The notes under the pieces are model-generated. The model searched no databases. It saw only the letters and a list, made by a program, of their open reading frames with translations, and was not told the origin of the DNA. 18,280 nt of DNA from an uncultured Myxococcales bacterium (lineage in GTDB: Bacteria; Myxococcota; UBA4151), in the NCBI GenBank assembly GCA_964013405.1, contig CAXGWI010000065.1, positions 1 through 18,280 of the forward strand, given 5' to 3'. The first letter of the stretch is position 1, and each line of letters starts with the position of its first letter. This document shows, one piece after another, positions 59 through 17,656 of this stretch. A program made the translations under genes and the position numbers.

Positions 59-1732
59 ATGCTACGTGTCCAGCTCTCCTTGATTGTTCTCCTTGTGGGC
101 GCCAGCGCACTTGTGACGCCTTGGTGGTACGGAATGGAGTTGAGTGAGGCGGCGAAGCAGTCAGCTCGGGTGACGACAGCTCGGGCTGCTAAGGTCGCTT
201 CACTTGGTTTTGAGCGTCAGGCCCGCCAGTTGGTGAACGAGGCCCTTGAGACAGCCGAGAAGGGGGAGAAGTCCCCATGGGCGAAGGAGCCAGCGGACCA
301 GCATCTCCGTTGGCATCTCGACCCCCGGGGGGTGGTGACAACCATCTACGGTGGCGTCGCCCTGAAACCGGGAATTGATCTGTCCGGGATCGAGGTGGTG
401 GCTGCTGCTCAGCAAGGCGTTGCAAGCGACGGCGTCGTCAATCTGCGGGTGCAGCCAAAGGCGTCGCTCTGGCATCTCGCCGCAGCCCCTGTGTCTGATA
501 CAGCCGGCAAGCTCAGCGGTGTCGTGGTGGTTGGGGTTCGGTTGAGTCAGTCGGCTCGGTTGCTGGCAGCCGAGCTTCAAGGACTGACAAACACGGCTGA
601 TAGCAGCTTGCGACTGGGTCTCATCGTGGGTGGGAAGCGCTATGGTGATCTGCCCGACCTCGTTGCGGGAAAGGTGCGTCGGGGCTTTCCCCTGGGTGAG
701 CCTGCGGGGCACGGCAATAAGGATGTCGGTCCCTTTATCCGCCTCAATGAGGCCGCTTGGATGGTCTCCGCCCAACCCTTGCAGACCCAAGCAGGGCCTG
801 GCTTCATTGTGGCAGCGACCGATGTCTCGGCTGGGCTTGGCCCGCTCGCAGATCTTCTGCAAACCGGGTTGCTGATGGGTTTGGGCCTAACGGTCATCGG
901 GCTTGTCATGGTCTTATTTGTGGGTCGGCGATTGAGTGCTTCGGCGAACACGCTCGCAGGCTGGCTCAGCGACTGGAGGGTTGGTGAGTCCAGTCCGATT
1001 CCGCTGGCCTCCTTAAGCCTACATCCCCTTTTTCGGCGGGTTCGAGGGGCACTCGATCTGGCCCTGGAGGGGAAGCGGGCGACCCGGGAGCCAGAGTCGA
1101 TCCTGGACACCCTTGTGCCAGGTGGTGAGGGCGAGTTCGGCACGGACACTATGAATTTCCCGGGCCTTGGTGACGATGTCGAATTTGGCAGCGCTGACAT
1201 GGGCGATGCCGGTGACGATCTTTTTGCACCCGCGCCCGACGACGAACCCTTCTCTGAAGGACCGGGCGCAGGGCCTGGTCCGGAGGCCCCATCGGGTGGT
1301 CCGACGCTACCGCCTATTCCGGCCGCAGCCCCAGCCCAGGCCCAGGCGGCCGAACCGGCCGCTGTTGGCGGTGGAGAGTTGAATCAGTTCAAAGTTGCGG
1401 ACGATGGTCAGATTGCCCCTGAGGATCCCGCTGGTTTCGGTGACATGGCCACGGGCCAGTTCAGTGTACCTGAGACCCTTTTGGAGCAGATTAGCAACGA
1501 CGAGATTGAAACCGGTGCTCGCCCCTATGAAGAGACATACAACGACTATGTCGCCATGAGGCAAACCTTGGGGGAAGATATCGAGTCGATCACCTATGAT
1601 CGCTTTCGCAAAAAGATCGAACACACCCGGGCGAAGATTTTGGAAGATACGGGGGCCAGAGATGTTCGCTTTAGCGTGAAGGAAAAGAATGGACGGGCCA
1701 GCTTGCGTGCAATGCCCGTCATGGACACTTGA
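59..1732 (+). CDS. MXAN_5187-family-like membrane protein: N-terminal TM, periplasmic Cache-like region, second TM, acidic/Pro-rich linker, MXAN_5187-like C-terminal domain
   Basis: GGAGGG RBS at 45-50. Hydrophobic N-terminus, Cache-like strand WHLAAAPVSDTAGKLSGVVVVG and TM GLLMGLGLTVIGLVMVLFVG. The C-terminus YEETYNDYVAMRQTLGE..ITYDRFRKKI..DVRFSVKEKNGRASLRAMP matches my recollection of the MXAN_5187 C-terminal domain. Confidence 0.75.
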   Translation: MLRVQLSLIVLLVGASALVTPWWYGMELSEAAKQSARVTTARAAKVASLGFERQARQLVNEALETAEKGEKSPWAKEPADQHLRWHLDPRGVVTTIYGGVALKPGIDLSGIEVVAAAQQGVASDGVVNLRVQPKASLWHLAAAPVSDTAGKLSGVVVVGVRLSQSARLLAAELQGLTNTADSSLRLGLIVGGKRYGDLPDLVAGKVRRGFPLGEPAGHGNKDVGPFIRLNEAAWMVSAQPLQTQAGPGFIVAATDVSAGLGPLADLLQTGLLMGLGLTVIGLVMVLFVGRRLSASANTLAGWLSDWRVGESSPIPLASLSLHPLFRRVRGALDLALEGKRATREPESILDTLVPGGEGEFGTDTMNFPGLGDDVEFGSADMGDAGDDLFAPAPDDEPFSEGPGAGPGPEAPSGGPTLPPIPAAAPAQAQAAEPAAVGGGELNQFKVADDGQIAPEDPAGFGDMATGQFSVPETLLEQISNDEIETGARPYEETYNDYVAMRQTLGEDIESITYDRFRKKIEHTRAKILEDTGARDVRFSVKEKNGRASLRAMPVMDT

Positions 1733-1748
1733 ATCTAGGCTAGCGCGG

Positions 1749-1772
1749 GTCCATGGTCTGCGGGCCATGGAC
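1749..1772 (+). promoter_or_regulatory. Intergenic stem-loop immediately upstream of the RBS of the next gene
   Basis: GTCCATGGTC-TGCG-GGCCATGGAC gives a 10-bp stem (one G-U pair) and a 4-nt loop. There is no U-tract, and GGAG follows at 1776-1779. Confidence 0.4.
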
Positions 1773-1785
1773 ATGGGAGCTTGGA

Positions 1786-3342
1786 ATGCGGCGATTAAGC
1801 CTTTTGGCCTTCAGTGGCCTCTTTCTCATCAACTGCAATTGCGAATCGACGAAGCAGAAGGGCGAAGAAGCAGCCAGCGGCGGGGAGTCGGTCAAAGCGG
1901 TTGACCTTCTGGATCACCTTCCGCCGAAAGACTTGGGATTCCTCGTTCATATTCCGAAACTGGGGCAGTCACTTGCTGGTCTCGGTCGGCACGCTGGGAT
2001 TGTGCTCGATGCGCTGGGCGATAAATCTGAGAGCTTCAGCGCCCTCAAGCAACAGTTGGGCTTCAATCCCATGGTGCCCACTGAGTTGAGCGCTGCTGGG
2101 ATCAAGGCCGATGGCGCCTTTGTGATTTGGGGGGGCGCCCCTGCAGGCGACGAAACCTGGCAGCCGCACATCGTGTTTGAAGTCAGCGACGAGGACGCAC
2201 TCATCAAGACGGTGACAGCCCTCGCGAAGCGGGAGGCAGCGCTGCAAATGGAGCCAGCACAAGTCGTTGATGAAGGGAAGTGGTATGGACTCTTCCGGAC
2301 CTTCGGAAAGAAGAAGGAGCCGCAGGGAGGGCTGCTGCTGCGGAAGGACCCCGCGATGGCGATTTTGACGGCCGTCGACCTGCCGTCGCTTCAGGCTTTT
2401 CTAAAGGTTAAAGGTGCCGTGAACGATCACCCAGAGTGGCTTCGTTTTCGTAAGCGCTCTACTGAGCCGGCTGATGCGACGGTTCTCATCACGACCTTGG
2501 GGGCCGGTCGGGCCATGGCAGAACAAGCCTCAGTGGCGAACCTGAAGGTGATGCCCTACCTCATCAAGATGGGTTTCGAATCGAGTCGTTTCTGGGTGAG
2601 CAGTCACCAGATCATGGATGGACAGACTGTGGCCCTCACCAAAATGCTGCAGCCCGAACCACCCATGGTTCCAGCTCCGCCTCAGGGAGCAGTACTCGCT
2701 GCCGCTGGCAGTTTGGATTTGGGTGAAACCTCCAAGCAGCTGATGCGCCACCCCCTCGTCGGAGGGCAAATGGCCCAGCTTGATACCACTGCGTTGAACG
2801 AAGTTTTCGCAGCATTGGGCAGTACATATCGTGTCTACCTTGGCCTGAGCGGGGAACCTGGCAGCAATCCGATGATTCTGTTGGGGCAGTCCTATTTTGG
2901 TCTCGACGTGATCGGGAAAGACCCCTCTTCCTTGAGGGGCTTGTTGCCCCAACTCGCAGAGAAGGCTGGTTTAGCTCCAGGTCAGTTGGTCCCCACTGAC
3001 AAGGGCTATTCGGTTCAGACGCCGGCGGGAATGCCCGTTGAGATCGAGTTGAACAGCGGTGAGAAGCGTTTGAGTATACGCTTCGGAAATGGCGCAAATG
3101 GGAGTGAGAAACTCACGGGCGTGAAGAGCCAACTCACCTTACCCAAGGGGACATTGAGCACATTTTACTTGGATCTGACTCGGCTGGGTAAAGTCGCCAC
3201 CACACTCCAAGGTGTGGAGACGCCAATGAAGTCCGTGATGGCACCGGCGGCGAAGATTCTCTCGAATTGGAGCTATCTGCTGGTCGACCAGCGCCTGGAC
3301 AAGGACTACCATGTCCAGACCTTGCAGATCGGCCTGCCGTGA
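1786..3342 (+). CDS. Putative lipoprotein A (~518 aa), paralog of 4004..5473, possibly DUF3352-like
   Basis: Start moved from 1753 to ATG 1786 (GGAG RBS at 1776-1779). Signal peptide MRRLSLLAFSGLFLIN-C17 has an atypical lipobox. Several motifs are shared with 4004..5473. Confidence 0.7.
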   Translation: MRRLSLLAFSGLFLINCNCESTKQKGEEAASGGESVKAVDLLDHLPPKDLGFLVHIPKLGQSLAGLGRHAGIVLDALGDKSESFSALKQQLGFNPMVPTELSAAGIKADGAFVIWGGAPAGDETWQPHIVFEVSDEDALIKTVTALAKREAALQMEPAQVVDEGKWYGLFRTFGKKKEPQGGLLLRKDPAMAILTAVDLPSLQAFLKVKGAVNDHPEWLRFRKRSTEPADATVLITTLGAGRAMAEQASVANLKVMPYLIKMGFESSRFWVSSHQIMDGQTVALTKMLQPEPPMVPAPPQGAVLAAAGSLDLGETSKQLMRHPLVGGQMAQLDTTALNEVFAALGSTYRVYLGLSGEPGSNPMILLGQSYFGLDVIGKDPSSLRGLLPQLAEKAGLAPGQLVPTDKGYSVQTPAGMPVEIELNSGEKRLSIRFGNGANGSEKLTGVKSQLTLPKGTLSTFYLDLTRLGKVATTLQGVETPMKSVMAPAAKILSNWSYLLVDQRLDKDYHVQTLQIGLP

Positions 3343-4007
3343 GTTCAGAAACACCGATCGACCTTCGCGGGGTCGGACGGTCCTATGCAGGTCTGGATCG
3401 ACCCGTTCTCGATGGACTCGATCTGTGCGTGGGGGCGGGGGAGGTCGTCGCCGTTTTAGGGCGGAGCGGGACTGGGAAGTCCACCTTGTTGCGCATCATT
3501 GCTGGGCTCGACACAGCTTATGTTGGCCAAGCCCTTCTTGGGGGCCACTCCCTGCGAGACCTTAGTGATACGGCCCTGGCTCGCTATCGAGCCGAGTCCG
3601 TTGGCATCATCTTTCAGTCCTTTCATTTGTTGGATCATCTTACGGCTGCTGAGAATGTGGATCTCGGCGCTCGGTTCAGTCGGAAGCCAACGAGCGAAAG
3701 CACGACTGAGTTGCTGGCGGCGGTGGGGCTGGAAGGACGGGGCAGTGATCGTCCTGCCTTGATGAGCGGGGGGGAGCGGCAACGCCTCGCCATCGCCCGA
3801 GCCCTGCGCAATCAGCCTGATATTGTGCTGGCCGATGAACCCACAGGCAATCTCGATGAAGCAACGGGCCGGGTGGTGATCAACCTTCTTGCCGAGTTAG
3901 GTAGAAAGAGGGGGGTTGCCAGCGTTTGGGTCACCCACGAAGAACGTCTCGCTGCCGCGGCAGATCGGGTCTTAGTCCTTGAGAACGGACGATTGGAGGA
4001 GCGATGA
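3339..4007 (+). CDS. ABC transporter ATP-binding protein, LolD/MacB (type VII) family
   Basis: Walker A GRSGTGKST, Q-loop IFQSFHL, signature MSGGERQR, Walker B/D-loop IVLADEPTGNLD, H-loop VTHE. The GTG start overlaps the upstream TGA (GTGA 3339-3342). Confidence 0.93.
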   Translation: MSSETPIDLRGVGRSYAGLDRPVLDGLDLCVGAGEVVAVLGRSGTGKSTLLRIIAGLDTAYVGQALLGGHSLRDLSDTALARYRAESVGIIFQSFHLLDHLTAAENVDLGARFSRKPTSESTTELLAAVGLEGRGSDRPALMSGGERQRLAIARALRNQPDIVLADEPTGNLDEATGRVVINLLAELGRKRGVASVWVTHEERLAAAADRVLVLENGRLEER

Positions 4008-5473
4008 AGAAAATACTTATATTCGGTCTGGCCTGTGGCTTGATGGGCTGCGTTCACGGCCGCAGCGGAGCGGTCGACACGGTGCTTCAGGACCTTCCTG
4101 CAGAACACCTTGGGGCCGTCGTGTACACGAGGGATACGGCGAAGTTTCTCACCTTTTTGAAGGCCGAGATCGACGCCATCGAGAAGATTGCCGGGGGCGC
4201 GATGCAGCAACAGATGCAGGACGACCTCGGCTTCCATCCATTGACCGCCGAAGGCTTGGCCGCCGCTGGGCTCGACCCCACAAGACAGATGGCCTTCTGG
4301 CTTGGGGGAACCAATCCGAAAAAACCCAGTGTGCATGGCGTTTTACCGCTAGGGAATCGGGACAAGTTCCTCACTGCTTTGGACCGAATTTTAGTCAAAG
4401 GCTCCCTCTCACGGGGGAGTCCAGTGAAGACGGCCAAAGGGGACTGGATTGGATTAAACCGCACCACAGGTCAGCGCTCGGAGCCGGCGGGCGGGCTCTT
4501 GATCAACTCGAGGTGGGTCATCTTAACGACTGGCGAACGTGGGGATCTGCAGGCTTTCTCTGAAGGCCCTTCAGTGGCTCAGCATCCCCATCTAGAGACC
4601 CTGCGTCATCGGAGTCAGAAAGCCGGTCAGATGGCGGTGTTTATGACGCCCAAATGGCTGGAGCAATTGCAGGGCACCTCCCTGGGCAGCGAGATGCCTC
4701 AGGCGGCGGCCCTCTATGCCGACGTGCAAATGACGCCGGGCAAGGAGGTCTTTGTGGAAGCCTTGAGCTTCAGTCTGCCCGAGGCCTTGGCGCTGCAGCG
4801 CCGCTTAACGCCCAAGCCCGTGGCGCGAGTCCCCAGCCCCAAGGGCGCGGTCTTGGCTGCGACCGGCACCATGAATGTGACGGAGCTCTTTGCCTTTGTG
4901 AAAGAAGAGGATGAAGTGGCAAAGGTGCTCAAAAAAGAACAACGGATGGTCGACGCGATCGAGCCGGTTCTCGCGAAGCTCGGTACCGACTTCACCTTTA
5001 GTCTGGGCGTCGACGGTGAACCAGCGAATCCGATGATATTGCTTGGTTCACTTTTTGCCCGTCTCGACATCGCCGGCGGGCAACCGAGAGAGGCTCTCGA
5101 CGGGGTTCTCGCCGCAGCTAAAGTCTTGGAGTTGCCCACGGACAAGGTGCAGGCCGTCGAGGGGGGATACGATCTCTTCATCCCGCCCTTTGTTCGGGTT
5201 CGCTTCCGGGCCGACGACCAGAATCTGACGATCGCCTACGGTCGTGATGCCCAGCCTGATTCAGACAGTGCGTTGATGAAGATCGCTGAAGGTCAGATGA
5301 ATGCCGGCCTGTTTGATGGGGCCAAGGTGGGACGCATGGTGTCCAAGATGGTCCGGATGAATATCGGGCCCAAGATCGGTGCCCTGTTGCAGCGCTATGG
5401 GTCCTGGGAAACCTGGAGTGGGCCTCTCGAGGCGATCACAGCAGGCTACGGGAGACTTAAAATCACGCCATGA
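4004..5473 (+). CDS. Putative lipoprotein B (489 aa), paralog of 1786..3342
   Basis: MKKILIFGLACGLMG-C16 lipoprotein signal, GGAGGAG RBS, ATGA overlap with the ATPase stop. Confidence 0.78.
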   Translation: MKKILIFGLACGLMGCVHGRSGAVDTVLQDLPAEHLGAVVYTRDTAKFLTFLKAEIDAIEKIAGGAMQQQMQDDLGFHPLTAEGLAAAGLDPTRQMAFWLGGTNPKKPSVHGVLPLGNRDKFLTALDRILVKGSLSRGSPVKTAKGDWIGLNRTTGQRSEPAGGLLINSRWVILTTGERGDLQAFSEGPSVAQHPHLETLRHRSQKAGQMAVFMTPKWLEQLQGTSLGSEMPQAAALYADVQMTPGKEVFVEALSFSLPEALALQRRLTPKPVARVPSPKGAVLAATGTMNVTELFAFVKEEDEVAKVLKKEQRMVDAIEPVLAKLGTDFTFSLGVDGEPANPMILLGSLFARLDIAGGQPREALDGVLAAAKVLELPTDKVQAVEGGYDLFIPPFVRVRFRADDQNLTIAYGRDAQPDSDSALMKIAEGQMNAGLFDGAKVGRMVSKMVRMNIGPKIGALLQRYGSWETWSGPLEAITAGYGRLKITP

Positions 5474-6765
5474 GCGATGCGAGTTTGCTCCGGTCGGGTC
5501 TGAAAAGAGATCGATCTACATTGGTGATGGGCGGGCTTGGTATCGCCCTCGGGATTGGTGCACTCACGTGTTTTTTGGCCCTCGGACTTGGACTTCGGAC
5601 CCATGTCATCGATGGCTTGGTCGGGGAACTCCCGGTCGGGACCCTCGATGTGAAACCCTCGGGCTCCAGCGTCTTGATGGGATTGCTGGGAAGCCAGAAG
5701 AGCCAAGGGATGGGGCCGGTGGTCGAACCGGCGAAGATCCAAGGACTAGAAGAAACCCCGGGCGTTGCCCGAGTCGTTCCTCGGATCAGGGTCGACGTGC
5801 CCATGATGGCTTGGGGGCTGCAAAAGGAGTTGAACCTTCCTAAGCCGGTCGCCGTCGATGTCTTCGCCACGGGCCTGCCAACCGACTGGGTGACGGACGA
5901 TGTTCAGCCCGGTCACGTCTTTGCGGATCCAGGCAAGGGAAAAGTCATTCCTGTACTCGTCTCTCGCCGACTGGTGAACATGGCGAACAGTGCCCTTGCT
6001 GCGACCGTGAAAGTCAACCTGACACCCAAATTGCTGGCCGGCTTGGAGTTTCGTTTGATGGTTGGGCGGTCTTACATGACCGGGGGAATCCGAGGTCCGG
6101 GCAAAGGCAGGACGGTCACCTGCAAGATCGTCGGCGTGAGTGATAAGGCGATTACGCTGGGCGTGTCGGTTCCGGAAGGCGTCGCTGAGCGCTGGAACCG
6201 GGAGTTTGAGAAAGCGCCCCGACCGGTTGCTGGCGCTTGGGTCCAGCTATCTGAGACCCGTCAGATGGCGAGTGTGGTGGCCGCCATCGAGAGTTACGGT
6301 CTGCAAGTGGATGAAGGCCCCCGGTTGGTCGGCTTGGTCATCGATGGCTTGCTCGCCGGACTGGTCCTCGTCGCTGGGCTCCTCTTGCTTTTGGCGGCGA
6401 TGATCATCGCGCAGACCTTCTACAGTCGGGTCGCGATGCGTCGCCGTGAGTATGGTTTGTATCGGGCCTTAGGGGCCCCGAGGGGCTTGATTTATCGCTT
6501 AGTCCTCGGCGAGGCCCTGATCGCCGGTGGTATCTCGGGCTGCCTTGGCGTGCTGCTGGGCTTCGGCGCAGCCTACGGTATTGAAAGCACCACTTTGGCT
6601 GCCCTGCCGGACCTACCGTTTGAACTGAATGCCCTGGCTTTGTATCACCCGGGTTTAGGCTTGTTGGGGGTCGCTCTTGCGCTCTCGTTTGCCTTGCTGG
6701 GGGCGCTGGGGCCGGCCGCTCGGGCAGCCTCCGTTGATCCAGCGGAGGCCCTGGAACTCTCGTGA
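5470..6765 (+). CDS. ABC transporter permease, FtsX/MacB/LolCE family
   Basis: One N-terminal TM, a large periplasmic domain, then three C-terminal TMs with the FtsX-type motif RRREYGLYRALGA and an ..AARAASVDPAEAL ending. ATGA overlap with the upstream stop. Confidence 0.9.
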   Translation: MSDASLLRSGLKRDRSTLVMGGLGIALGIGALTCFLALGLGLRTHVIDGLVGELPVGTLDVKPSGSSVLMGLLGSQKSQGMGPVVEPAKIQGLEETPGVARVVPRIRVDVPMMAWGLQKELNLPKPVAVDVFATGLPTDWVTDDVQPGHVFADPGKGKVIPVLVSRRLVNMANSALAATVKVNLTPKLLAGLEFRLMVGRSYMTGGIRGPGKGRTVTCKIVGVSDKAITLGVSVPEGVAERWNREFEKAPRPVAGAWVQLSETRQMASVVAAIESYGLQVDEGPRLVGLVIDGLLAGLVLVAGLLLLLAAMIIAQTFYSRVAMRRREYGLYRALGAPRGLIYRLVLGEALIAGGISGCLGVLLGFGAAYGIESTTLAALPDLPFELNALALYHPGLGLLGVALALSFALLGALGPAARAASVDPAEALELS

Positions 6766-7838
6766 ACAGCGAACGGTCACCCTGGATCGTCTCGCCACGC
6801 TTTGATCTTTCTTTCTTTTTGTTGGGGGCCTGGCTGGTTCCGATCCTGCTCTGGGCGGGGATTGGTCTCTGGGGCTTACTGACCTCCTTGCTGATCTTTC
6901 GTGTGCTCGACTACAGCCATATCTTCGTCACCTGGCCCTTCACCTTTGGCGACCGGGAGACCATGACCGCACACGGTCGATGGTATCGAGTGGGCTTTCT
7001 CGCCATCGTGATTCTTTCCGTGTTGATGACGACCTTGGGCCGGAGTGCTCAGGTGCTGTGGTGGAGCGTGTTTATCTACTGGGGTGCCTTCCACATCATT
7101 CGGCAGCATTATGGCTTTCTGCGGATCTACCAAGCCCGTCAGGGGGCGACACCCGAGTTAGCAAAAGCCGAAGTCGGCTTACTCTACAGCGGCACCGCCT
7201 TCCCTTATCTGCTGAACCTCTCCCAGGGCTGGGCCTTGGACCCGATGGGGGATCAGGTCTTTCAACTGCCTGTCCCAGCGGTGTTGGCCTGGGGTGCGCT
7301 TGGCATTTTCGTTGCCTGCGCTGTTCAGGTGGCTTGGGGCTGGTGGTGTCTACTTCGCAGTGGCCGGAGGGTTGGATGGCAGCGGCTCCTGCACCTCGTG
7401 CTGGCCATCAGTAACTTTTGGGTGGGGCTCTTGTGGGCGGGCCAGACCAATGCTGCCCTCGCAGCCCTCTTCATCACCAGTTATCATGACCTTCAATACC
7501 ACGGCGTGATCTGGTGGGTTGGTCAGCGTCGTTATCGCCGTCGCGACAGTAACCCGTTCGGCAGCCTGTTTACCGCTCGGCTGCCCTTGCTGCTCGTCGG
7601 CTTTGTGCTGGCAGCCGGCTGTTTGCATACTTTGATGATTGGGGATCTGAGTTGGCTGCCTGGCCTGGAATGGAGCCGTTTCGCCTTCAGTGACGAGCCC
7701 GGACCGATGATGTACGTGGCCAACTTCTTCATTGGCACGGTCGCGGCCCACTACCTCTTTGATGGGAAAATGTGGAAGATGAGCGAGAATCCGAGACTCC
7801 GGCAGGAGCTGGATCTCAGCCGGCCTTCAGGGGCCTGA
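6762..7838 (+). CDS. Multi-pass membrane protein with conserved His motifs (putative metal-dependent membrane enzyme), paralog 1
   Basis: Many hydrophobic segments. Motifs SHIFVTW, FHIIRQHYGF, SYHDLQY, AHYLFDGKMWK. GTGA overlap with the permease stop. Confidence 0.75.
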   Translation: MNSERSPWIVSPRFDLSFFLLGAWLVPILLWAGIGLWGLLTSLLIFRVLDYSHIFVTWPFTFGDRETMTAHGRWYRVGFLAIVILSVLMTTLGRSAQVLWWSVFIYWGAFHIIRQHYGFLRIYQARQGATPELAKAEVGLLYSGTAFPYLLNLSQGWALDPMGDQVFQLPVPAVLAWGALGIFVACAVQVAWGWWCLLRSGRRVGWQRLLHLVLAISNFWVGLLWAGQTNAALAALFITSYHDLQYHGVIWWVGQRRYRRRDSNPFGSLFTARLPLLLVGFVLAAGCLHTLMIGDLSWLPGLEWSRFAFSDEPGPMMYVANFFIGTVAAHYLFDGKMWKMSENPRLRQELDLSRPSGA

Positions 7839-7852
7839 CGAGGAGTGAGCGA

Positions 7853-9025
7853 TTGAGTGAAGCGAAGGTTCTGGGCGAGGACAGGTCCCCCGGTCCCTGG
7901 GTTGTTTCACCGGTCTACGACCAATGGTTTCTTCTGGGCGCTTGGCTCTTTCCCTTCGGACTTCTTTTGCTGGTGGCCCTCTTGGAACCGACGATGGGTC
8001 GGCTGGGGGCCGTCGCCAGCGCTTACCTTGTGTTTCAGTTTGTCGACTGCGCGCACATTTTCATTACCTGGCCCATCCTGTTTGGGGACCGGGGGATCCG
8101 GGCCCGTTATGGCGACAGCAACCTGATCATCTTTGCCGGGATCGTGCTTGCCTCCATCGCGTGCACCTACAGTGGGCGCACGACTCAGATGGTCTACTGG
8201 ACCAGTTTCCTCTTCTTCGGGACATGGCACAACATCCGGCAACACTACGGCTTTCTGCGGCTCTACCAGGCCCGCACACCATCTTTGGACCGGCAGGCTG
8301 CTCGCGCAGAGGTGCTTTGTCTCTATGGTGGGACAGCGACCGCTTTCTTCACCAACATTCACTTTGGTTGGCTGTACGAGAGCTTTGGCGCCAACGTGAC
8401 GTGGATTCAGGTGCCGGCCTTGGTGCCCTGCGCCTGCTTTGTGGTCTTTCTCTATGGCTTGATCGGCGCCCTGGTCGGGATGTGGCAGCGACGCCGGGCA
8501 GGCTTGCCGGTGGGGGGACCTCGTCTCCTGCACTTGTTTCTCGTGCTCTCGAATTTCGTTTTGGGTCTGTTGGTACTGACCCGGGGCGACCTGTTGCTGA
8601 CCGTGCTGTTTATCACCAGCTACCACGATCTGCAGTACTTGCCCTTGGTCTGGCATATGGGTCGGCGACGCTACAGCAGTGAGCAGGGGGCCAAGGAGAA
8701 CCCATTGGCCCTGCTCTTTCGCTCGGGCCACTTTGTCTACTTCTTGGGGGCCTTAGCCCTCGGGGCGCTGATTCATGTGACCGCTGTTGGCCAGCTCAGC
8801 TTCCTCAACGGCCTGGACTTTACGGCCTATGCCCTGACCGATGAACCGGGGCTGATGAACTACGTGGCGAATGGGTTCATTGCGACGAGCCTAGCCCACT
8901 TCATCCTCGATGGGCGCATCTGGAAGTTCAGCGAGGACCCCCGTCTAAAGGATGAGTTTGACCTGCATCGACGGTCTGAGGGGGCGGCATCACAGGGCTC
9001 GGGGGTTGGGCCTGCGGCCGGCTAA
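7853..9025 (+). CDS. Multi-pass membrane protein with conserved His motifs, paralog 2 (~390 aa)
   Basis: Start placed at TTG 7853 (GAGGAG RBS at 7840-7845), which brings its N-terminus into line with paralog 1. Motifs AHIFITW, WHNIRQHYGF, SYHDLQY, AHFILDGRIWK. Confidence 0.75.
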   Translation: MSEAKVLGEDRSPGPWVVSPVYDQWFLLGAWLFPFGLLLLVALLEPTMGRLGAVASAYLVFQFVDCAHIFITWPILFGDRGIRARYGDSNLIIFAGIVLASIACTYSGRTTQMVYWTSFLFFGTWHNIRQHYGFLRLYQARTPSLDRQAARAEVLCLYGGTATAFFTNIHFGWLYESFGANVTWIQVPALVPCACFVVFLYGLIGALVGMWQRRRAGLPVGGPRLLHLFLVLSNFVLGLLVLTRGDLLLTVLFITSYHDLQYLPLVWHMGRRRYSSEQGAKENPLALLFRSGHFVYFLGALALGALIHVTAVGQLSFLNGLDFTAYALTDEPGLMNYVANGFIATSLAHFILDGRIWKFSEDPRLKDEFDLHRRSEGAASQGSGVGPAAG

Positions 9026-9743
9026 GGCCACGGGGGTGTTGTACCAGGATGGTGGCTGGCCCATCAGCGTCTGGTTCTAGGATAAAAGCTGGTGGGCCAA
9101 AGCGGCGACCGCCGAGGCCGGTCGCACGCAGCCAAATGCGCTCTTCGCCCTCTGTCTCGACCGCGACGTGGATGACACCAGGCCGGTCGGCGACTTTGGC
9201 ACTGGGTCCGGTCGCGTTCATTTCGATCTCGATGCGCAAGGCCACCTGCTCTTTATCCTGATGGCGATAGCTAAACTCGATGGGTGCAAGCAGGTAGGCC
9301 CGGAGGTCCAGCGGGTGCTGGGGCAGGTTACGGGCTTTGCGGGCAGCCCAAATCTGACCGGAAACGCGGTCGACTTCATAGGCGAGGAATTGGTCGGGGT
9401 GGGCAGCATCGGAGCCTCGCTCCGGCGGCATGATCCAAAAGAAGAAGACGGCAAAGACAAAGAAGCCTGCCTTCACTGCACCCCAGGGGATTTGCCCTTT
9501 AAGCCCTGCGGCCGCCGCACCGCAGATGAGCAGCCATAGGACGGGGTTTGGGGGGCTGAGATAGTAGCTCCAGGGCCCCCCGAAGTGGAGTTGCCAGGCA
9601 TCGACCAAACGCCACAGGGCCAACGCGATGATGGGGGTACAGAGCAGCCACCGCCACAGTCGTGGGTCCTGGGCAGGAGGTTGTAGTCCTACCCCAGTTT
9701 CATCGAGGTGATCAGCCGGTTGTTGGGCCTCGTCGTCTGTCAA
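8928..9743 (-). CDS. Hypothetical membrane protein (about 3 N-terminal TMs, a soluble domain, Pro-rich tail)
   Basis: 271-aa ORF filling the gap between + strand genes. TTG start preceded by AAGGGGGG. Hydrophobic segments LWRWLLCTPIIALALW, VLWLLICGAAAAGL and AGFFVFAVFFFWIM. Confidence 0.6.
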   Translation of the reverse strand: MTDDEAQQPADHLDETGVGLQPPAQDPRLWRWLLCTPIIALALWRLVDAWQLHFGGPWSYYLSPPNPVLWLLICGAAAAGLKGQIPWGAVKAGFFVFAVFFFWIMPPERGSDAAHPDQFLAYEVDRVSGQIWAARKARNLPQHPLDLRAYLLAPIEFSYRHQDKEQVALRIEIEMNATGPSAKVADRPGVIHVAVETEGEERIWLRATGLGGRRFGPPAFILEPDADGPATILVQHPRGLSRPQAQPPSPVMPPPQTVDAGQTHPLDGGPR

Positions 9744-9793
9744 CGGATGGTCCCCCCTTTTCTCTTAGCCTTCGGACAGGGCATAGGACCACC

Positions 9794-10945
9794 GTGTTTC
9801 GTTCCCTTCCCATGGTGCTGGCCTTGGCCAGTTGCAACCTGCAGCAGGCTCCCGCGCCAATGGGGCCCGAACCCAAACAATGTCTGGATCTCGAGACCGC
9901 GCTCCAGGCCACTCGAACGGCCCTCGATGAGCAGCGCTTTCAGTGGCTAGGTCAGGTCATTCGGGAGGTCTTTGTCGAAGGAAAACTGGGTTCGGAGTTA
10001 AGATCGGAACTCACCGACCCAGCGTCCCTAGAAGCCCATCTCGAAGGCAATCACCTGAGAACCTTGGTTGGGGTCATTGTTGAAGGTCTGGCCGAGATGA
10101 TCCCGGCCCAAACCTTAAGGGGGCTCGAATCCATTGTGTCGGAAGATGTGTCGATCGGGTCACTCATGGCATTTATGGATGCCCAGCCGGCCCGGTGGGA
10201 CGTGCTGGATCCGGTTCGAGAGATGTTCTCTTCTTGTCGGGATGGTGGAGATCTGGCCGACCTGCTGGTGCACCTGCCAATGGTCGAGGGGAACTGTGGC
10301 GAGGCTGAGCTCCTCTGCGCCATCGATCATTTGGTCATCGTCTTGAAGTCGCCGGATTTGGCCGAGTCCTTAGCGAACGTAGATTTCGAAGGGCGCATCG
10401 GTAGGGAGGCTTTTCAACAGCTCATTATCCACGTCATGGACGTCACCGCGACCCCTGGTTTCGACGCCGAAGCCCTCGCCGGACAGTTGCGCAACATTTT
10501 CGGCGAGCGCCTGGACGAAACGACGCTCGATGCTTTGGACGGTCTGATCGGCTCCTTTGGTCGGTTCATGGCCAATCAGCAGGTTCAGCAGCCCTGGAGT
10601 CGTGTGGTTTCGTGCGTCAAACGCTACGATCCGGAGCGGGCTGTTAGCGGCCTGACCTATGACATGTTGACGGATGGGGGCCTGAATTCCGGCACGACAG
10701 CCCGTGTGCTGACCGAGACAAAAGCCAACTTGGACGCTCAGCGCATGATGGTGGAGTGGAGCCGTATGGCGACCTTGCTCGCCGAGGATCCAGCCTTGCG
10801 CGAGCGACTTTCTTTGGGCTTGAAGCCCCTTTTGGTCCCCTCGCTCGTTCGATGGATCTCGCCCCGAGTGGTCGATCTCCAAGAGCGTGGCGTTTTGGCT
10901 GAATGGGTCCGACTTGTGGCGGAGGGCTTACCTTGCGACGACTAA
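9794..10945 (+). CDS. Putative alpha-helical lipoprotein (~383 aa)
   Basis: Start placed at GTG 9794 (AGGA at 9785-9788), giving MFRSLPMVLALAS-C14 with lipobox LASC. Leu/Glu/Ala-rich amphipathic helical pattern. Its 3' end overlaps the start of the FadL-like gene. Confidence 0.68.
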   Translation: MFRSLPMVLALASCNLQQAPAPMGPEPKQCLDLETALQATRTALDEQRFQWLGQVIREVFVEGKLGSELRSELTDPASLEAHLEGNHLRTLVGVIVEGLAEMIPAQTLRGLESIVSEDVSIGSLMAFMDAQPARWDVLDPVREMFSSCRDGGDLADLLVHLPMVEGNCGEAELLCAIDHLVIVLKSPDLAESLANVDFEGRIGREAFQQLIIHVMDVTATPGFDAEALAGQLRNIFGERLDETTLDALDGLIGSFGRFMANQQVQQPWSRVVSCVKRYDPERAVSGLTYDMLTDGGLNSGTTARVLTETKANLDAQRMMVEWSRMATLLAEDPALRERLSLGLKPLLVPSLVRWISPRVVDLQERGVLAEWVRLVAEGLPCDD

Positions 10946-12216
10946 TCTTATTGGCCGCGTTCTGTTCCACCAACGCATGGGCGAATGCCATCGAAGTCTA
11001 TGGCTTCGGCGCGTCAGGGACCGCCCAGGGTCTGAGCTCGGCCGCAGCCCCAGGGGCCCTTGCTGCCTATGGAAACCCTGGCTTTCTCACCGCTTCTGGA
11101 CAGGGGCATTTCACCCTCGGTTTCCAGGGCACGCAATCAGCGCTCTCCATCGATGGATCCAAGCGGACGGCCGAGCCTGCCCGCGCATCCCAGCACGTGC
11201 TCATGGGTCTCAATCTCCCCTTGGGGGAGGTCCTTGGTCGCAGGCTACACTTTGGCCTGGCCTTCCAGAGTCCGCAAAAGCAACTGGTCACGACTCGAGC
11301 GCAGCACGCGTCTACACCCCACTGGGCTTTCTACGATGGTTACACGGAGCGCGTTGCTTCTGCACTCGCTCTTGGTTTGGATTTAGGGGCGGGTTTTTCC
11401 GTTGGCTTCGGCGCCCAAAATAACGTGGGCCTAGATGGTCAGGTCAACCTGGCTGTCGATCCGGGCACGGAGCGATTTACCGAGCGGAAGCTCGATTTCA
11501 ATTTCTACGGTGTGTGGAGCCCGATTGTGGGCCTGCGTTGGCATCTGGGTAAGACCCACCTCGGGCTCAGTTACCGTCGTCAGACTGTCCAGTCCTACGC
11601 GACCCCTGCGCTGGTCGATGTGGACGGACTCGATGCCCAGTTTACCCTGGGGCTCGGTGGTCAGAGTCACTTCATTCCTGACACCACCGAGTTGGCTGTG
11701 CGCTACCAACACGGCCTACGCCGATGGCTCAGTCTCGGGTTGGTGCACAAGCGGTGGAGTGCGCAGCCCGACCCGCGGCTCGATACCAGTCTAACCGTCA
11801 GCGGTGATGATGCTGAACAGTTGGGTTTGGACGCGGCCTTGGCCTGGCCCGACCCGGCCGAGGCTTGGGGAATTTCCCCGGCCTACAGCGACACCCTTGC
11901 CTTTGCCCTCGCAGGCAGTTGGGAGATGAAGCCGGTTCACGCCACCCTCTCCTACGGCTTTGAACCCAGCCCCGTGCCCGAGCAAATCGGATTCTATAAT
12001 CAGGCCGACGGCGATAATCACCAGGTTGGTTGGGGGCTAGGTTACGATTTTGACGCTGCATTGGGGGCTCGAGGCTGGTCGGTCATGTTGGCCGGTCGGC
12101 ATCGGATTTACCCGACCCGTAGCAACCGCAAGGAGCGGGTCGGAGACCCGACCGGCGACTGGAGTGCTGGTGGCCTCTTTCACGTGCTGGTCCTGGAGTT
12201 CCAACGGGGCCTTTAG
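10933..12216 (+). CDS. Outer-membrane beta-barrel, OmpP1/FadL/TodX family (hydrophobic compound transport)
   Basis: TTG start with GGAGGG RBS (10921-10926) and Sec signal ..STNAWA. FadL-like N-terminal plug YGFGASGTAQG..AAYGNPGFL, alternating beta-strands, and the late motif YGFEPSPVP..NQADGDNH. Confidence 0.78.
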   Translation: MRRLILLAAFCSTNAWANAIEVYGFGASGTAQGLSSAAAPGALAAYGNPGFLTASGQGHFTLGFQGTQSALSIDGSKRTAEPARASQHVLMGLNLPLGEVLGRRLHFGLAFQSPQKQLVTTRAQHASTPHWAFYDGYTERVASALALGLDLGAGFSVGFGAQNNVGLDGQVNLAVDPGTERFTERKLDFNFYGVWSPIVGLRWHLGKTHLGLSYRRQTVQSYATPALVDVDGLDAQFTLGLGGQSHFIPDTTELAVRYQHGLRRWLSLGLVHKRWSAQPDPRLDTSLTVSGDDAEQLGLDAALAWPDPAEAWGISPAYSDTLAFALAGSWEMKPVHATLSYGFEPSPVPEQIGFYNQADGDNHQVGWGLGYDFDAALGARGWSVMLAGRHRIYPTRSNRKERVGDPTGDWSAGGLFHVLVLEFQRGL

Positions 12217-12248
12217 CGCCCGGATGCCATTTTCCCCTCGTGCGCGCG

Positions 12249-12278
12249 TTGACCCCGTCGACGCTCCAGCAGTATCAC
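12249..12278 (+). promoter_or_regulatory. Possible sigma70-type promoter
   Basis: TTGACC (12249-12254), 18 nt spacer, TATCAC (12273-12278) in the intergenic gap before ATG 12308. The -10 element is imperfect. Confidence 0.25.
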
Positions 12279-12307
12279 CGGGTAAGGCCGAGACCAAAGG
12301 GGACGGT

Positions 12308-12547
12308 ATGAGTTCAAATTTAATCGCCCTCCAGAACCGATTTCTGGGGGCTGGTGAGACGATCTACGACCGTCTTGCCCAAGTGGCTGAGGAGCAGGGC
12401 GCCATTGACTCGGCAGCCATCGATCAGTTGGCAAAAGAACTCAAGTTGCCTCCCGCTATCATCCGCAGTGTCGCTAAGTTCTACGATGATCTGCGCAGCC
12501 TTCGCTTAAGGGGCCCTCAGCCTGACAGACGGGGCCTGTTGGGCTAA
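12308..12547 (+). pseudogene. Truncated N-terminal fragment of a NuoE/FdsG/HoxF-like NADH-oxidoreductase subunit
   Basis: AAGGGGA RBS. ..LAQVAEEQGAIDSAAIDQLAKELKLPPAIIRSVAKFYDDL resembles the NuoE N-terminal helical domain ending in (V)AxFY. The ORF stops about 20 codons later and contains no Cys, so the [2Fe-2S] domain is missing. Confidence 0.6.
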
Positions 12548-12570
12548 GACGGACCCGGTAGGAGAAAGAT

Positions 12571-13767
12571 ATGCGCCACCTGTCCTCCCTGGCCCTCCTG
12601 ACGCTGATGGCCTGTCCTGGGTCGGTCGTAGATGACCCTGATGGGCCACCGGCACCCGACGGGGGCGTTGAAGCGCCCAGTGATGCCGGTGTCGAAGCAC
12701 CGATCGACGGAGGACAAGCCGCAGTCGATGCGGGGGCTTCGCCGGTGGCCGATCCCGATGGTGGCGTGGTGAGACCGGATGCCGGAGTCGCGGCCCCGGA
12801 CGGGGGAGTTGAACCCGAACCCGAACTCAGCGACGTTTTTATCGACAACCCGTTGGGGACCTACGAGATTCTCGATCTCTGGGTTGATGAGGAGGAGGAA
12901 GAACCGCCCGTCTTTGAAGGTCTGGTCTTTGCGGACAATGGCGCCACCGCGATGATGGCGGACCTCAGCGAGTGCATTCCCAGCATTGTGTTCGCAGAAT
13001 GGCGTGTGAACGGCGAAGGGCAGTTGTTGACCTACGGGGGACCCGACGAGGTGGAGGGAGACCTTCTTCTGGGCGCTTTATCGGATAACGGCACCATGAC
13101 CATTCAGTTTCCTGGCGGTGGTGCGGTGCTGCGTCGAATCCGTACCGACTGCCACACCATGGAGAATCACGTCGGTGCATGGCAGATGATGGGTGAAGAA
13201 CCGGAGCAGCAGATGACTGTCGTGCTAACGGATGCAGAAGACTATGTGGTGATGATCAGTAATGACCCCTGCTTCCCCTTGGTGTCGGCGACTTATGATT
13301 TAGTCGGGCCCTGGCTTCGGATCGCAGAGGAGGACGATGATGAGATGGGTGACTCCGTTCCGATTTTTGTAAAGAGAGGCAGCTTGTACTTGGCAGGAGT
13401 TGGTGTGGAGAACGGTGAAGGGACACCCCCTATGGAGCGCATCGACCGCTGTGAAGATGGCGCGATGAGTCTGCCGCCTCAAGTACTGGCAGGCACCTAT
13501 CGAACCAGTGGCAACAACCCGCCGGCCCCTTTCATTGCCATGGGCGCCGATGGGCAGTTCACCTTGCTCACAGAGGTGAGTCCCTGCTCGCCCATCAGCA
13601 GTGGTGAGTACACGGCCAACAACACCGTCTTCGGATATCGGGTGGGTGAGCAGACGGGATTGGGGCGCTATACGATGGAGGGGGCCAATATCACCGTCTA
13701 CCAAGGCCTTGAGCCCCAGGCGCCGGTTTGGCTGAACCTCACCCGTGTTCGGTCGGCTTGCCATTAG
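12571..13767 (+). CDS. Lipoprotein with a DGG/DAG-repeat linker and three tandem lipocalin-like beta domains
   Basis: AGGAGA RBS and lipobox LMA-C15. Seven D-[GA]-G motifs in aa 30-79. Three ~100-aa units, each starting G-x-[YW] and containing two Cys. Confidence 0.75.
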   Translation: MRHLSSLALLTLMACPGSVVDDPDGPPAPDGGVEAPSDAGVEAPIDGGQAAVDAGASPVADPDGGVVRPDAGVAAPDGGVEPEPELSDVFIDNPLGTYEILDLWVDEEEEEPPVFEGLVFADNGATAMMADLSECIPSIVFAEWRVNGEGQLLTYGGPDEVEGDLLLGALSDNGTMTIQFPGGGAVLRRIRTDCHTMENHVGAWQMMGEEPEQQMTVVLTDAEDYVVMISNDPCFPLVSATYDLVGPWLRIAEEDDDEMGDSVPIFVKRGSLYLAGVGVENGEGTPPMERIDRCEDGAMSLPPQVLAGTYRTSGNNPPAPFIAMGADGQFTLLTEVSPCSPISSGEYTANNTVFGYRVGEQTGLGRYTMEGANITVYQGLEPQAPVWLNLTRVRSACH

Positions 13768-13780
13768 GATTCGAGGTCAG

Positions 13781-15376
13781 ATGCGTTCTTGCTTGGGCTT
13801 ATGGGGAGTTGTTGCGGTCTTGGGGCTGCTGACTGGCTGTTCTAGCCCTTGCGAACTCAACGCGGACTGCGTCGCACCCGATGTCTGCTTTAATGGCATT
13901 TGCTCGCCTCCGAGCGATGGGGAGGCTCCCGGTTGTGAGGCCCACGGGGATTGCAGCGACTTGGCCGTATGTGATTGGTCCTTGGGCCAATGTCAGAACC
14001 TCGAGCCCGGTGCTTGTCACCCTGAAGATCCGGATCGCTGCCGCTGCCGAGAAGCGGGGGTTTGTCCCGAGAACCTGTGTCGAGCCGATGGATTTTGCTG
14101 GCACGAGCAAGCCCAAGGACCCGATGCCGGCCCCCCTGGTGGCGAAGACGCCGGCCACCAAGGTTGCGAGCGCACAGGGGACTGTCCAGAGGGGCATTAC
14201 TGCTATCCTCGGGATGGTTCCTGTCGTCCCCTCGAGCATCCCTCTTGTCGGGAAGATCGAGATTGCCGTGAGGCGGATGGGGAGCGTTGCGAGCGAGATG
14301 CAGACCGGGAACTCGGTCAATGCGAAGCACCCGCGCCCGAATGCGAGGATGACTTCGATTGTCCGGCGACGGACCGCTGTCTAGCCGGGCGCTGTATGCC
14401 TCGGCCCGAGCCTCGCTGTGGTGACGGCGTGCTGGACGATGGCGAGGCCTGCGACGATGGGAACAACCGGGACGGTGATGGCTGTAACCGGAACTGCGCC
14501 CTTGAGGCAGTCTGTGGCAATGGTGTGGAGGAGCGAGGCGAGCAATGCGATGACGGCAATCGCCGGGCTGGCGATGGCTGCGATGGCAACTGCCGTATCG
14601 AGCAGGAGGCCCAGTGTGGCAATGGTTGGGTTGAAGGCGATGAGCAGTGCGATGACGGCAACGACGTCGATACGGACAGTTGCACGACAGCTTGTCGCCG
14701 GGCCGCCTGTGGCGATGGCTTCGTTTGGGCCATTCTAGAGGAATGCGACGACGGCAACGACGCCAACGGCGATGGCTGCGATGCCTTCTGTCGACTCGAA
14801 GGCTGTGGCAACGGGCGTCTTGAGGCCGGCGAGGAATGCGACGACCGGAACCGCGAGAACGATGACAATTGCACCAATGAATGCCGTCGGGCGGTTTGCG
14901 GCGATGGCATCCTGAGAAACTTTGGCGAAGATTGCGATGACGGCAATCTGGAGCCGGGAGATGGTTGCGACGAGCGTTGTCGGATTGAAGGCTGCGGCAA
15001 CGGCCGAATTGACGAGGGCGAAGAGTGCGACGACCGCAACCAAGTCGATGGTGACTTCTGTACCAATGAATGTCGCCTCGGGGTTTGCGGTGATGGCGTC
15101 TTGAGGGAGTGGTGGGAGCAATGCGACGACGGCAACCTCGTCGATGGGGATGGTTGCGATGCCGAATGCCAAATCGAGGGCTGTGGCAATGGGCGTCGGG
15201 AAGAGGGTGAAGAATGTGATGACGGCAACGCCGACGATGGGGATTGGTGCACCAATGCTTGTACGGAAGCCCGCTGTGGTGATGGCGTCGTCAGGGATTT
15301 CTGGGAGCAGTGCGACGATGGCAACAACGTGGCCGGAGATGGCTGCGACGAACGTTGTTTTAACGAAGAGGACTAG
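13781..15376 (+). CDS. Cys-rich lipoprotein with Dickkopf-like N-terminal modules and 10 myxobacterial cysteine-rich (DUF4215-like) repeats
   Basis: Start moved to ATG 13781 (GAGGT RBS), lipobox LTG-C20. Ten copies of CG[DN]G-x6/7-E-x-CDD[GR]N-x4-D-x-C-x3-C. Confidence 0.88.
   Translation: MRSCLGLWGVVAVLGLLTGCSSPCELNADCVAPDVCFNGICSPPSDGEAPGCEAHGDCSDLAVCDWSLGQCQNLEPGACHPEDPDRCRCREAGVCPENLCRADGFCWHEQAQGPDAGPPGGEDAGHQGCERTGDCPEGHYCYPRDGSCRPLEHPSCREDRDCREADGERCERDADRELGQCEAPAPECEDDFDCPATDRCLAGRCMPRPEPRCGDGVLDDGEACDDGNNRDGDGCNRNCALEAVCGNGVEERGEQCDDGNRRAGDGCDGNCRIEQEAQCGNGWVEGDEQCDDGNDVDTDSCTTACRRAACGDGFVWAILEECDDGNDANGDGCDAFCRLEGCGNGRLEAGEECDDRNRENDDNCTNECRRAVCGDGILRNFGEDCDDGNLEPGDGCDERCRIEGCGNGRIDEGEECDDRNQVDGDFCTNECRLGVCGDGVLREWWEQCDDGNLVDGDGCDAECQIEGCGNGRREEGEECDDGNADDGDWCTNACTEARCGDGVVRDFWEQCDDGNNVAGDGCDERCFNEED
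14417..15358 (+). repeat. Coding tandem array of 10 Cys-rich repeats; units 3-10 form a 189-nt dimer periodicity
   Basis: CGNG Cys codons at 14615, 14804, 14993 and 15182, each exactly 189 nt apart. Confidence 0.92.
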
Positions 15377-16830
15377 GCCCGGTTCGCCGCCTTCACCTTC
15401 TTCAGGGCTTCTCGCAGTCGGCGCCGGGTGCGCTCCTTGCCCAGCACGGTGAGCGTTTCCCACATACCTGGGGTTGCCTTGCGCCCAGTCACTGCGATGC
15501 GAACGGGCATGAAGAGGTCTCTGGGCTTCCAGCCGGTCTCCTCGCAATGCCCTCGCAAGAGTTGCTCGATCGGTTCTTCGCTCCACTCCATCAACTGGTC
15601 CACTTTATCGATGAGGGAGGCGAGGACCGGCTCCAGCTCTTCGAGGCTCTTCTTTTTGGGCTTCAGATCCTCAGCCTCCACATCGAGGTCGCCGCTAAAG
15701 AAGTAAGCGACCTGGGGCATGAACTCGTCGAGTCGATCCATGCGCTCATGGACCAACGGGACGATTTGAGCCCAGCGTTCATCGCTCAGCAGGTGCTCTT
15801 TGAGCCGCTCCCAAATTCCTTCCGGGCTATGGTCCTCACGGATATAGCGACCGTTGAGCCAACTGAGCTTCGCCACATCGAAGACGGGCCCGCCGAGGGT
15901 GACGCGTTCCAGCGAGAAGGCGGCAACCATCTCTTCAAAGCTAAACTTCTCCCGGGTCTCTTCGCCTTCTTCGACCGGAAAGCCCCAGGCCATCCGTGCC
16001 AAGTAGTTGCGCATCGCTTCGGGCAAGATACCAGCATCGCGGTAATAGTTGAGACTCACCGGGTTCTTGCGCTTACTGACCTTCGACTTGTCCGGATTGC
16101 GCAGCAAAGGAAGGTGGCAGAAGACGGGCTGCTTCCAGCCAAAGGCTTCATAAAGCATCACGTGCTTGGGTGTAGACGTGATCCACTCTTCGCCGCGGAT
16201 GACGTGGCTGATCTCCATCAGGTGATCATCGACGACGTTGGCCAAATGATAGGTTGGAAAACCGTCGGATTTGACCAGGACTTGGTCATCAACCTCCTTG
16301 TTGGCGAACTCGATCGGGTCCCGCAGCAGGTCTCGCACCACCGTCGTGCCTTCCCGATCGACCCGCAGGCGAATGACGTAGGGCTCGCCAACTGCCATCC
16401 GGGCCCGGGCTTCAACGGGATCCAGATCTCTGCAGTGGCCATCATAACCGAGCCAGCCTTTGGCCTTCATTTGTTCCGTGCGCAGCGTGGCGAGCCGCTC
16501 CGGGGTACAGAAACAGGGATAGGCCTTGCCCGCATCCACCAACTGCTGGGCGTATTGAGCGTACAGTTCACTGCGTTCCGACTGCCGGTAAGGGCCATAG
16601 TCACCGCCGCAATCTGGCCCTTCATCCCATTGGATCCCCACCCATCGCAGGGCATCGTAGATCATCGCTTCCGAAGTCGGGGTGCACCGGCTCTGGTCGG
16701 TGTCTTCGATCCGCAGGATAAAGCGGCCACCCTTTTGCATGGCAAAGACCTTGTTGATGAGGCCGATGTAGGCGGTGCCGATATGGGGGTCGCCTGTGGG
16801 CGATGGAGCGATGCGGACACGGACGGACAT
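15373..16830 (-). CDS. gltX: Glutamate--tRNA ligase
   Basis: RIAPSPTGDPHIGTAY (HIGH region), LRIEDTD, YRQSER, CFC..YDGHC Zn site, DGFPTYHLANVVDDH, HVIRGEEW, KVSKR (KMSKS-like), and a full anticodon-binding domain. Confidence 0.97.
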   Translation of the reverse strand: MSVRVRIAPSPTGDPHIGTAYIGLINKVFAMQKGGRFILRIEDTDQSRCTPTSEAMIYDALRWVGIQWDEGPDCGGDYGPYRQSERSELYAQYAQQLVDAGKAYPCFCTPERLATLRTEQMKAKGWLGYDGHCRDLDPVEARARMAVGEPYVIRLRVDREGTTVVRDLLRDPIEFANKEVDDQVLVKSDGFPTYHLANVVDDHLMEISHVIRGEEWITSTPKHVMLYEAFGWKQPVFCHLPLLRNPDKSKVSKRKNPVSLNYYRDAGILPEAMRNYLARMAWGFPVEEGEETREKFSFEEMVAAFSLERVTLGGPVFDVAKLSWLNGRYIREDHSPEGIWERLKEHLLSDERWAQIVPLVHERMDRLDEFMPQVAYFFSGDLDVEAEDLKPKKKSLEELEPVLASLIDKVDQLMEWSEEPIEQLLRGHCEETGWKPRDLFMPVRIAVTGRKATPGMWETLTVLGKERTRRRLREALKKVKAANRA

Positions 16831-16986
16831 AGTCAGAGCCTCAGGGTCATTCGTAAGCGGGGCGCTGCTAGCAGGAGATTGGTGAATACGAAAGCACCAC
16901 GGGCAGGCTGAGGTTGACTAATCTCTGCGCTTGATTGATCCAGCGACCGAGAGCGTCATAAAAGCGAGCACAAGCAGGAGCCCAAG

Positions 16987-17541: not shown

Positions 17542-17599
17542 GCCGGGTTCACGCCGAGTCCGTACGGCGATTGATCGATAAAAAAGGGACTCAATTCCT

Positions 17600-17628: not shown

Positions 17629-17656
17629 CCCACGCCGAATAAGGAATGGAGGCACC

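Follow-up and report, generated by a model that had tools for sequence, protein, structure and literature searches.

The window analyzed here is a whole contig of 18,280 nucleotides (CAXGWI010000065.1; contig C65 of genome G000) from an uncultured Myxococcales bacterium whose genome measures 3.9 Mb and is 94% complete, and it carries an ATP-binding cassette (ABC) transporter within a run of seven co-oriented open reading frames (ORFs). Comparison across the phylum shows that the conserved unit is not this seven-gene run. It consists of three genes, which encode, in this order, a large lipoprotein, an ATPase and a permease of the MacB/FtsX type with four transmembrane segments (4-TM). The module is an uncharacterised, widespread variant of the type VII ABC transporters with a novel class of lipoprotein partner, and in the window it is accompanied by genus-specific genes.

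Of 301 genomes drawn from the phylum, 240 contain a match to the permease, nearly always a single one, and the lipoprotein family is found by profile search in 243; both are absent from families f9 (0/21) and f17 (0/11). Genome positions were listed for the best 150 matches per search. Both positions were listed for 110 genomes, and in 108 of these the lipoprotein gene lies just upstream of the permease gene, on the same strand and with space for the ATPase (107 of 109 without the unpublished genome G195, which is counted in the 240 and the 243). In 40 loci taken to span the families, with gene order read by profile searches, the order lipoprotein-ATPase-permease occurs in 38, a twin lipoprotein in one (from the window's genus) and no ATPase in one. 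In this last locus (L064:6570-9283, genome G001), the lipoprotein gene adjoins the permease gene. Flanking genes differ between families, including those in the slot behind the permease, and the three-gene core is unchanged. A first-pass annotation of the window had put large lipoproteins in the place of the transporter's usual partner and made its proposal depend on co-occurrence of the genes in other genomes; the neighborhood survey shows this for lipoprotein, ATPase and permease, and not for the second lipoprotein, the pair of membrane proteins at the end of the run or its first gene. The module is also kept in small genomes having just three or four FtsX-family permeases, which suggests a part in core envelope physiology.

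The junctions within the module are conserved as well. Lipoprotein and ATPase genes overlap by 4 nucleotides (nt) in 32 of 38 orthologous loci, and ATPase and permease genes in 33 of 38 (39 loci were examined, one without an ATPase at that place, and kin among them are not independent). Such retention in orthologous loci exceeds chance. In the window itself, the four (A/G)TGA overlaps described earlier are present, each of 4 nt: GTGA at 3339, ATGA at 4004, ATGA at 5470 and GTGA at 6762. The seven co-oriented ORFs and the gene that follows them are:

59..1732, + strand: membrane protein of the MXAN_5187 family; outside the conserved module and its neighbor only in the window's own family
1786..3342, + strand: lipoprotein A, 518 amino acids (aa), core; DUF3352/DUF4836-like with a possible TP0453-like fold, at the ancestral position ahead of the ATPase
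3339..4007, + strand: ABC ATPase of LolD/MacB type, 222 aa, core; Walker A, signature, Walker B and H-loop in the translation
4004..5473, + strand: lipoprotein B, 489 aa; a further member of the family, encoded between ATPase and permease, seen only in the window's genus
5470..6765, + strand: type VII ABC permease, 431 aa, core; 4-TM, MacB_PCD and FtsX domains, own clade
6762..7838, + strand: membrane protein 1; four invariant histidines (H53, H111, H242, H330), linked to the module only in the window's genus
7853..9025, + strand: membrane protein 2; paralog of membrane protein 1 (42%), linked to the module only in the window's genus
8928..9743, − strand: distant homolog (E 1e-5, ~210 aa) of the small membrane protein in the MXAN_5697 slot

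The probable start codon of lipoprotein A is ATG 1786, at which the predicted signal peptide begins, and its lipobox reads L-I-N-C, with an atypical Asn at −1. Membrane protein 2 probably starts at TTG 7853 behind GAGGAG, without overlap with membrane protein 1. All seven genes are under purifying selection: against the other genome of the same genus, the proportion of nonsynonymous differences (pN) is 0.10-0.26, far below the near-saturated synonymous proportion (pS) of 0.70-0.84, and they are therefore maintained genes. In a public RNA run (X1), short contigs match parts of the first gene, of lipoprotein A and of the permease, six of seven at ≥99% identity; none spans a junction and none lies on lipoprotein B or the four-His proteins, so the run shows neither co-transcription nor silence.

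By sequence criteria, the ATPase and permease qualify as a type VII ABC transporter, for which ATP-driven mechanotransmission would be predicted. The best models of the ATPase are of LolD/YbbA/MacB type, all below cut-off (LolD 203 bits versus a cut-off of 308). The permease combines MacB_PCD and FtsX domains and has four hydrophobic segments with a large periplasmic domain after the first. In a quick IQ-TREE analysis of 67 permeases (25 of the 55 rows of alignment A3 and two others among them), with the Shimodaira-Hasegawa approximate likelihood ratio test (SH-aLRT) as sole support measure, all 27 permeases of the family fall together (SH-aLRT 97). A second permease of the same genome, on contig C18, groups with E. 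coli LolC and LolE (SH-aLRT 100). MacB, FtsX and YbbP fall outside the family group, FtsX and YbbP on long branches. The transporter is thus distinct from LolCDE, MacAB and FtsEX, and its permease does not cluster with canonical LolC/E, an outcome that would have refuted the first-pass proposal.

None of the known type VII systems compared here matches the module. Like LolCDE-LolA, it pairs a 4-TM MacB_PCD/FtsX permease with a separate LolD-like ATPase and a periplasmic partner predicted to accept hydrophobic cargo; unlike it, the partner is a lipoprotein of 500-550 aa, not a soluble protein of 200 aa such as LolA. Assignment of the window permease to LolC/E was rejected, since the lolCE model matches it at E 0.004 (9e-71 for the C18 permease) and it lies in a separate clade. 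Furthermore, the genome has its own lolCE-like gene with an ATPase on C18, a lolA gene on C10 and a two-permease system on C101. MacAB-TolC and FtsEX-EnvC share permease fold and ATPase class with the module, whereas the window has no fusion of ATPase and permease, and no MacA, TolC, LolA or EnvC, in agreement with the first annotation, among its 16 ORFs, the set covered by the scan for MacA-type adaptors. MacAB-TolC was rejected because of the missing adaptor and because the permease lies outside the MacB group; FtsEX was rejected because the permease has 431 aa versus ~300 aa in FtsX and FtsX models score far below cut-off. An FtsE-like ATPase on C9 is a better FtsE candidate than the window ATPase. 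YbbAP-TesA resembles the module in having a type VII ABC gene beside the gene of a periplasmic partner, and lipid extraction from the inner membrane has been proposed for it; its deletion gave no distinctive phenotype (PMC12646458). YbbP is double-length and TesA a hydrolase, whereas the window has a single 4-TM permease, no TesA hydrolase neighbor and a lipoprotein without a catalytic family match, and YbbAP-TesA was rejected as well. The best match of the permease among solved sequences is B. subtilis YtrF (E 6e-6, C-terminal part only); YtrEF (PDB 9o9x) comes from a monoderm host and a different operon.

Lipoproteins A and B are paralogs (26% identity over 456 aa, E 1e-27), as proposed in the first-pass annotation, and match a family profile built without them (E 6e-17 and 7e-20). 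In a quick tree they are sisters with weak support (81), inside the clade of the window's family, which fits a duplication within that family. DUF3352 (PF11832) is matched by 11 of 29 family members and DUF4836 (PF16120) by two, at E ≤ 0.001; relatives exceed the Pfam cut-off, whereas the window copies match neither these nor DUF2138 directly. Clusters of DUF3352, DUF4836 and DUF2138 (PF09909) are also the Atlas structure neighbors of the lipoprotein (TM score 0.65-0.68). The lipoprotein is therefore DUF3352/DUF4836-like, a link made through family profile and structure. A word-index homolog search returned just four close proteins, and the profile had no significant match among PDB sequences. 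From the lipobox cysteine, a CxxC/CxC motif runs in 95 of the 111 lipobox-bearing members (149 examined), at 1834-1842 in the window.

The AlphaFold2 model of lipoprotein A, made from a 149-sequence alignment, has a mean predicted local distance difference test score (pLDDT) of 88 and a predicted TM score (pTM) of 0.85; a single-sequence fold of lipoprotein B reached pLDDT 38. The top meaningful Foldseek match of the model (Foldseek probability 1.00) is Treponema pallidum TP0453 (PDB 3k8g-3k8j), a membrane-associated lipoprotein, as the window protein would be, that has about half its size and is 8-9% identical to it. On re-alignment, TP0453 gave Z 9.3 and a root-mean-square deviation (rmsd) of 4.4 over 218 residues, and in a wide search it ranked first among 48,161 chains (Z 7.8; next 5.4), so that its alignments overall span Z 7.8-9.3, rmsd 4.4-4.7 and 201-218 residues. 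LolA, LolB and LppX-LprG are not among the fold-search matches listed, in which a model of 518 residues may hide single-domain matches. Support for an internal repeat of the lipoprotein halves was weak (probability 58-62%, 39 columns). TP0453 is described as an α/β/α lipoprotein with amphipathic helices and as a suggested lipid and glycolipid carrier (PMC5421087), and no link between it and an ABC transporter was found in the portions of the sources available.

A counterpart exists in Myxococcus xanthus, where the order in AM003 is PspA, an NMT1-type binding protein, a hypothetical protein, lipoprotein, ATPase, permease, a small gene and a Ser/Thr kinase; in related loci a histidine kinase precedes PspA. 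Candidate MXAN numbers were matched to the module by gene offsets. Since the offsets match exactly, the module is very likely MXAN_5700/5699/5698, and this mapping by gene order puts it in a tractable model organism. MXAN_5183-5187 and MXAN_5745-5750 were rejected as the locus, since they hold crdS and romY. In PMC4103005, the ATPase MXAN_5699 is placed near the kinase MXAN_5696 and the sensor kinase MXAN_5704, and the ABC genes given there include MXAN_5698 and MXAN_5702; PMC3924187 describes MXAN_5698 as an ABC3 permease with four transmembrane segments. Main texts within the coverage of our literature search, which excluded subscription journals, gave no match for DUF3352 or DUF4836 or for MXAN_5696-5700/5702, and nothing relevant on myxobacteria together with type VII ABC transporters and lipoproteins. 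The module is not mentioned in the main texts of PMC3222651 and bioRxiv 10.64898/2026.08.28.747804, nor in the accessible portions of PMC6617876, PMC3147164, PMC9481161, PMC11841059, PMC5956850 and PMC13749626.

What might the module do? Type VII systems act together with a periplasmic partner, and many extract lipid-like substrates (PMC12646458). Extraction of an inner-membrane lipid by the ABC transporter and its hand-off to the lipoprotein is the most likely function, at somewhat less than an even chance, because the nearest fold of the translationally coupled lipoprotein is that of a proposed lipid carrier. By analogy with LolCDE-LolA and YbbAP-TesA, ATP would drive closure of the periplasmic domains, the lipid would be pulled from the inner membrane and then passed to the periplasmic partner, and the lipoprotein would act as receiver, its lipid binding being suggested by the TP0453 fold match. 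Gene neighborhoods in two small groups of loci are consistent with this: a gene with a START/polyketide-cyclase domain lies directly 5′ of the single lipoprotein in two sister-genus loci (L032:5006-5728 and L033:5103-5816), and lolA lies two genes after the permease in two loci of family f7 (L044:6616-7251 and L043:9952-10587). A complex prediction with one permease chain and lipoprotein A scored 0.00 in two runs and is uninformative either way, since the controls did not fold.

Several observations weigh against extraction and hand-off. The TP0453 match is middling and spans under half of the lipoprotein model, sensor or chaperone domains of the Mog1/PsbP type follow it in rank (Z 4-5.4), and the carrier role of TP0453 is itself just proposed (PMC5421087). 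In M. xanthus, an insertion in the inferred permease gene MXAN_5698 was viable and left six traits without significant change (adjusted p 0.11-0.87), and MXAN_5699 resisted disruption in at least three attempts (PMC4103005); these outcomes conflict with regard to essentiality. Furthermore, linkage appears loose in the sister class, Polyangia, that of G303. Among 61 genomes surveyed there, 34 have the permease, and a lipoprotein was found adjoining it in just 7 of these 34 (combined positions); of the fetched loci, 3 of 22 have an upstream lipoprotein, with strong composition bias. The lipoprotein family was found anywhere in 17 of the 61 by profile search, which is an undercount, since the profile missed the divergent copy of G303 itself and divergence may hide others. 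Thus, the ABC transporter apparently can exist without an adjacent lipoprotein, and this survey genuinely speaks against an obligatory partnership.

A more far-reaching version of lipid extraction and hand-off, in which the module is a hitherto undescribed, phylum-wide lipid-trafficking route of the envelope whose type VII ABC transporter loads a dedicated DUF3352/TP0453-like lipoprotein, and in which the window's genus adds a second carrier and two cargo-tailoring metalloenzymes, is doubtful. If true, it would provide the first function for the DUF3352, DUF4836 and DUF2138 lipoproteins of many phyla. The function of type VII ABC transporters is set by the periplasmic partner, and the partner class of the window lies outside the four known from E. 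coli (PMC12646458). The module is also a handle on large lipoprotein families for which no function is described.

Alternatively, the module could be a device for mechanotransmission or sensing, in which an envelope cue would be sensed by the lipoprotein and relayed through the ABC transporter as in FtsEX or BceAB, possibly to a downstream Ser/Thr kinase. In 20 of 43 loci, the 3.5 kb downstream hold, on the same strand, a gene for a membrane Ser/Thr kinase of the MXAN_5696 type, the kinase-bearing loci coming from seven families of the phylum sample plus three loci from outside it, and the kinase is also present in 7 of 22 sister-class loci (with short flanks; two loci are common to both sets). 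The Myxococcus loci have PspA and a histidine kinase at their flanks, and toward its N-terminus the lipoprotein model is similar to Mog1/PsbP-fold domains, among them the extracellular domain of PknH (Z 4.3). However, Z scores of the PsbP type are within the background range, and the kinase is not found in the other 23 loci, among them the window and the same-genus locus, and we consider a sensing role rather unlikely. The kinase in this slot carries a PEGA domain (for example, L161:8161-10662).

A second, dedicated Lol-like releaser, with the lipoprotein as its cargo or as chaperone for a subset of lipoproteins, would be in line with LolD as the best model of the ATPase, with the lolA genes behind the operon in the two f7 loci and with the CxxC/CxC motif, which could serve as a sorting signal. 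The lolA linkage was seen just in this one family, and the permease neither groups with LolC/E nor matches the lolCE model as the C18 permease does, which makes a Lol-like releaser improbable.

The first-pass annotation proposed a pathway of all seven genes, in which a lipid is modified by the four-His enzymes, extracted by the ABC transporter and received by the lipoprotein pair. As a genus-specific elaboration, this draws on the 4-nt overlap between permease and membrane protein 1, kept in both genomes of the genus, on a conservation of the four-His proteins (85-86% identity within the genus) like that of the permease (87%), and on the appearance of lipoprotein duplication and four-His pair in the same lineage. 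The twin paralogy it described holds for the four-His proteins too (42% identity, E 8e-90). Its additional parts are not supported by the survey: 38 of 40 loci have one lipoprotein, and the twin form recurs only in the same-genus genome; the sensor-like first gene accompanies the module in 3 of 40 loci, which all belong to the window's family (the MXAN_5187 C-terminal domain model matches it above cut-off, the whole-family model below). Four-His homologs occur in 65 of 301 genomes. For 62 of these the module position is listed, and just two, G000 and G020, both of this genus, have the homologs within 20 kb of it; the others lie at least 0.97 Mb away on the same contig in 15 genomes and on other contigs in 45. 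The four-His pair is not needed for the module elsewhere, different genes take its place behind the permease, and its enzymatic activity is putative, so that a seven-gene pathway is very unlikely even in the restricted form. Least likely of all is an efflux-type transporter with partners encoded elsewhere and the lipoprotein as an old operon neighbor. The 27 of 34 sister-class genomes without an adjacent lipoprotein (at the sensitivity used) would point to it, as would the BLAST results of the family permeases, 26 of 27 of which match MacB best, if weakly, of the type VII permeases of E. coli; against it stand the adjacency in 108 of 110 genomes and the coupling overlaps kept across many families despite changing flanks.

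The four-His proteins are likely metal-binding enzymes, as judged from their sequences: a metal site is suggested by H53, H111, H242 and H330, which are the same in all of the 17 sequences compared. No Pfam, NCBIfam or PDB family and no named Atlas structural neighbor matched them; desaturases/hydroxylases or the Brp/Blh type are candidates, with no profile match found. The pair is probably co-transcribed with the module in this genus, where the lipoprotein gene would have been duplicated and an unrelated tandem four-His pair would have come to lie behind the permease. A third, distant paralog lies within a longer ORF at G000:C4:26286-28088 (−), among genes resembling cysteine lipoproteins. 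The small membrane protein of the MXAN_5697 slot lies directly 3′ of the permease in 11 other loci, and the homology of 8928-9743 therefore suggests that the four-His pair came to lie between the permease and this gene, which is now inverted. Its family is a possible fourth member of the module in one branch. The gene at 8928-9743 has no Pfam family and is convergent with membrane protein 2, their ends overlapping by ~98 nt.

At the contig start, positions 1-53 are a GAA-rich repeat. The assembly probably broke here, since in the same-genus locus the gene upstream has its match at the end of contig C104; further upstream, rpoC precedes the locus in the window's family. Behind the module, 9662-15376 (+) is a run of envelope genes encoding two probable lipoproteins, between them a FadL/TodX-like outer-membrane protein (E 3e-4, below cut-off), and then a DUF4215 protein with cysteine-rich repeats. 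The remainder, 15373-18280, holds housekeeping genes, namely glutamyl-tRNA synthetase (−), a TerB/DUF533-like protein, rpsP and rimM.

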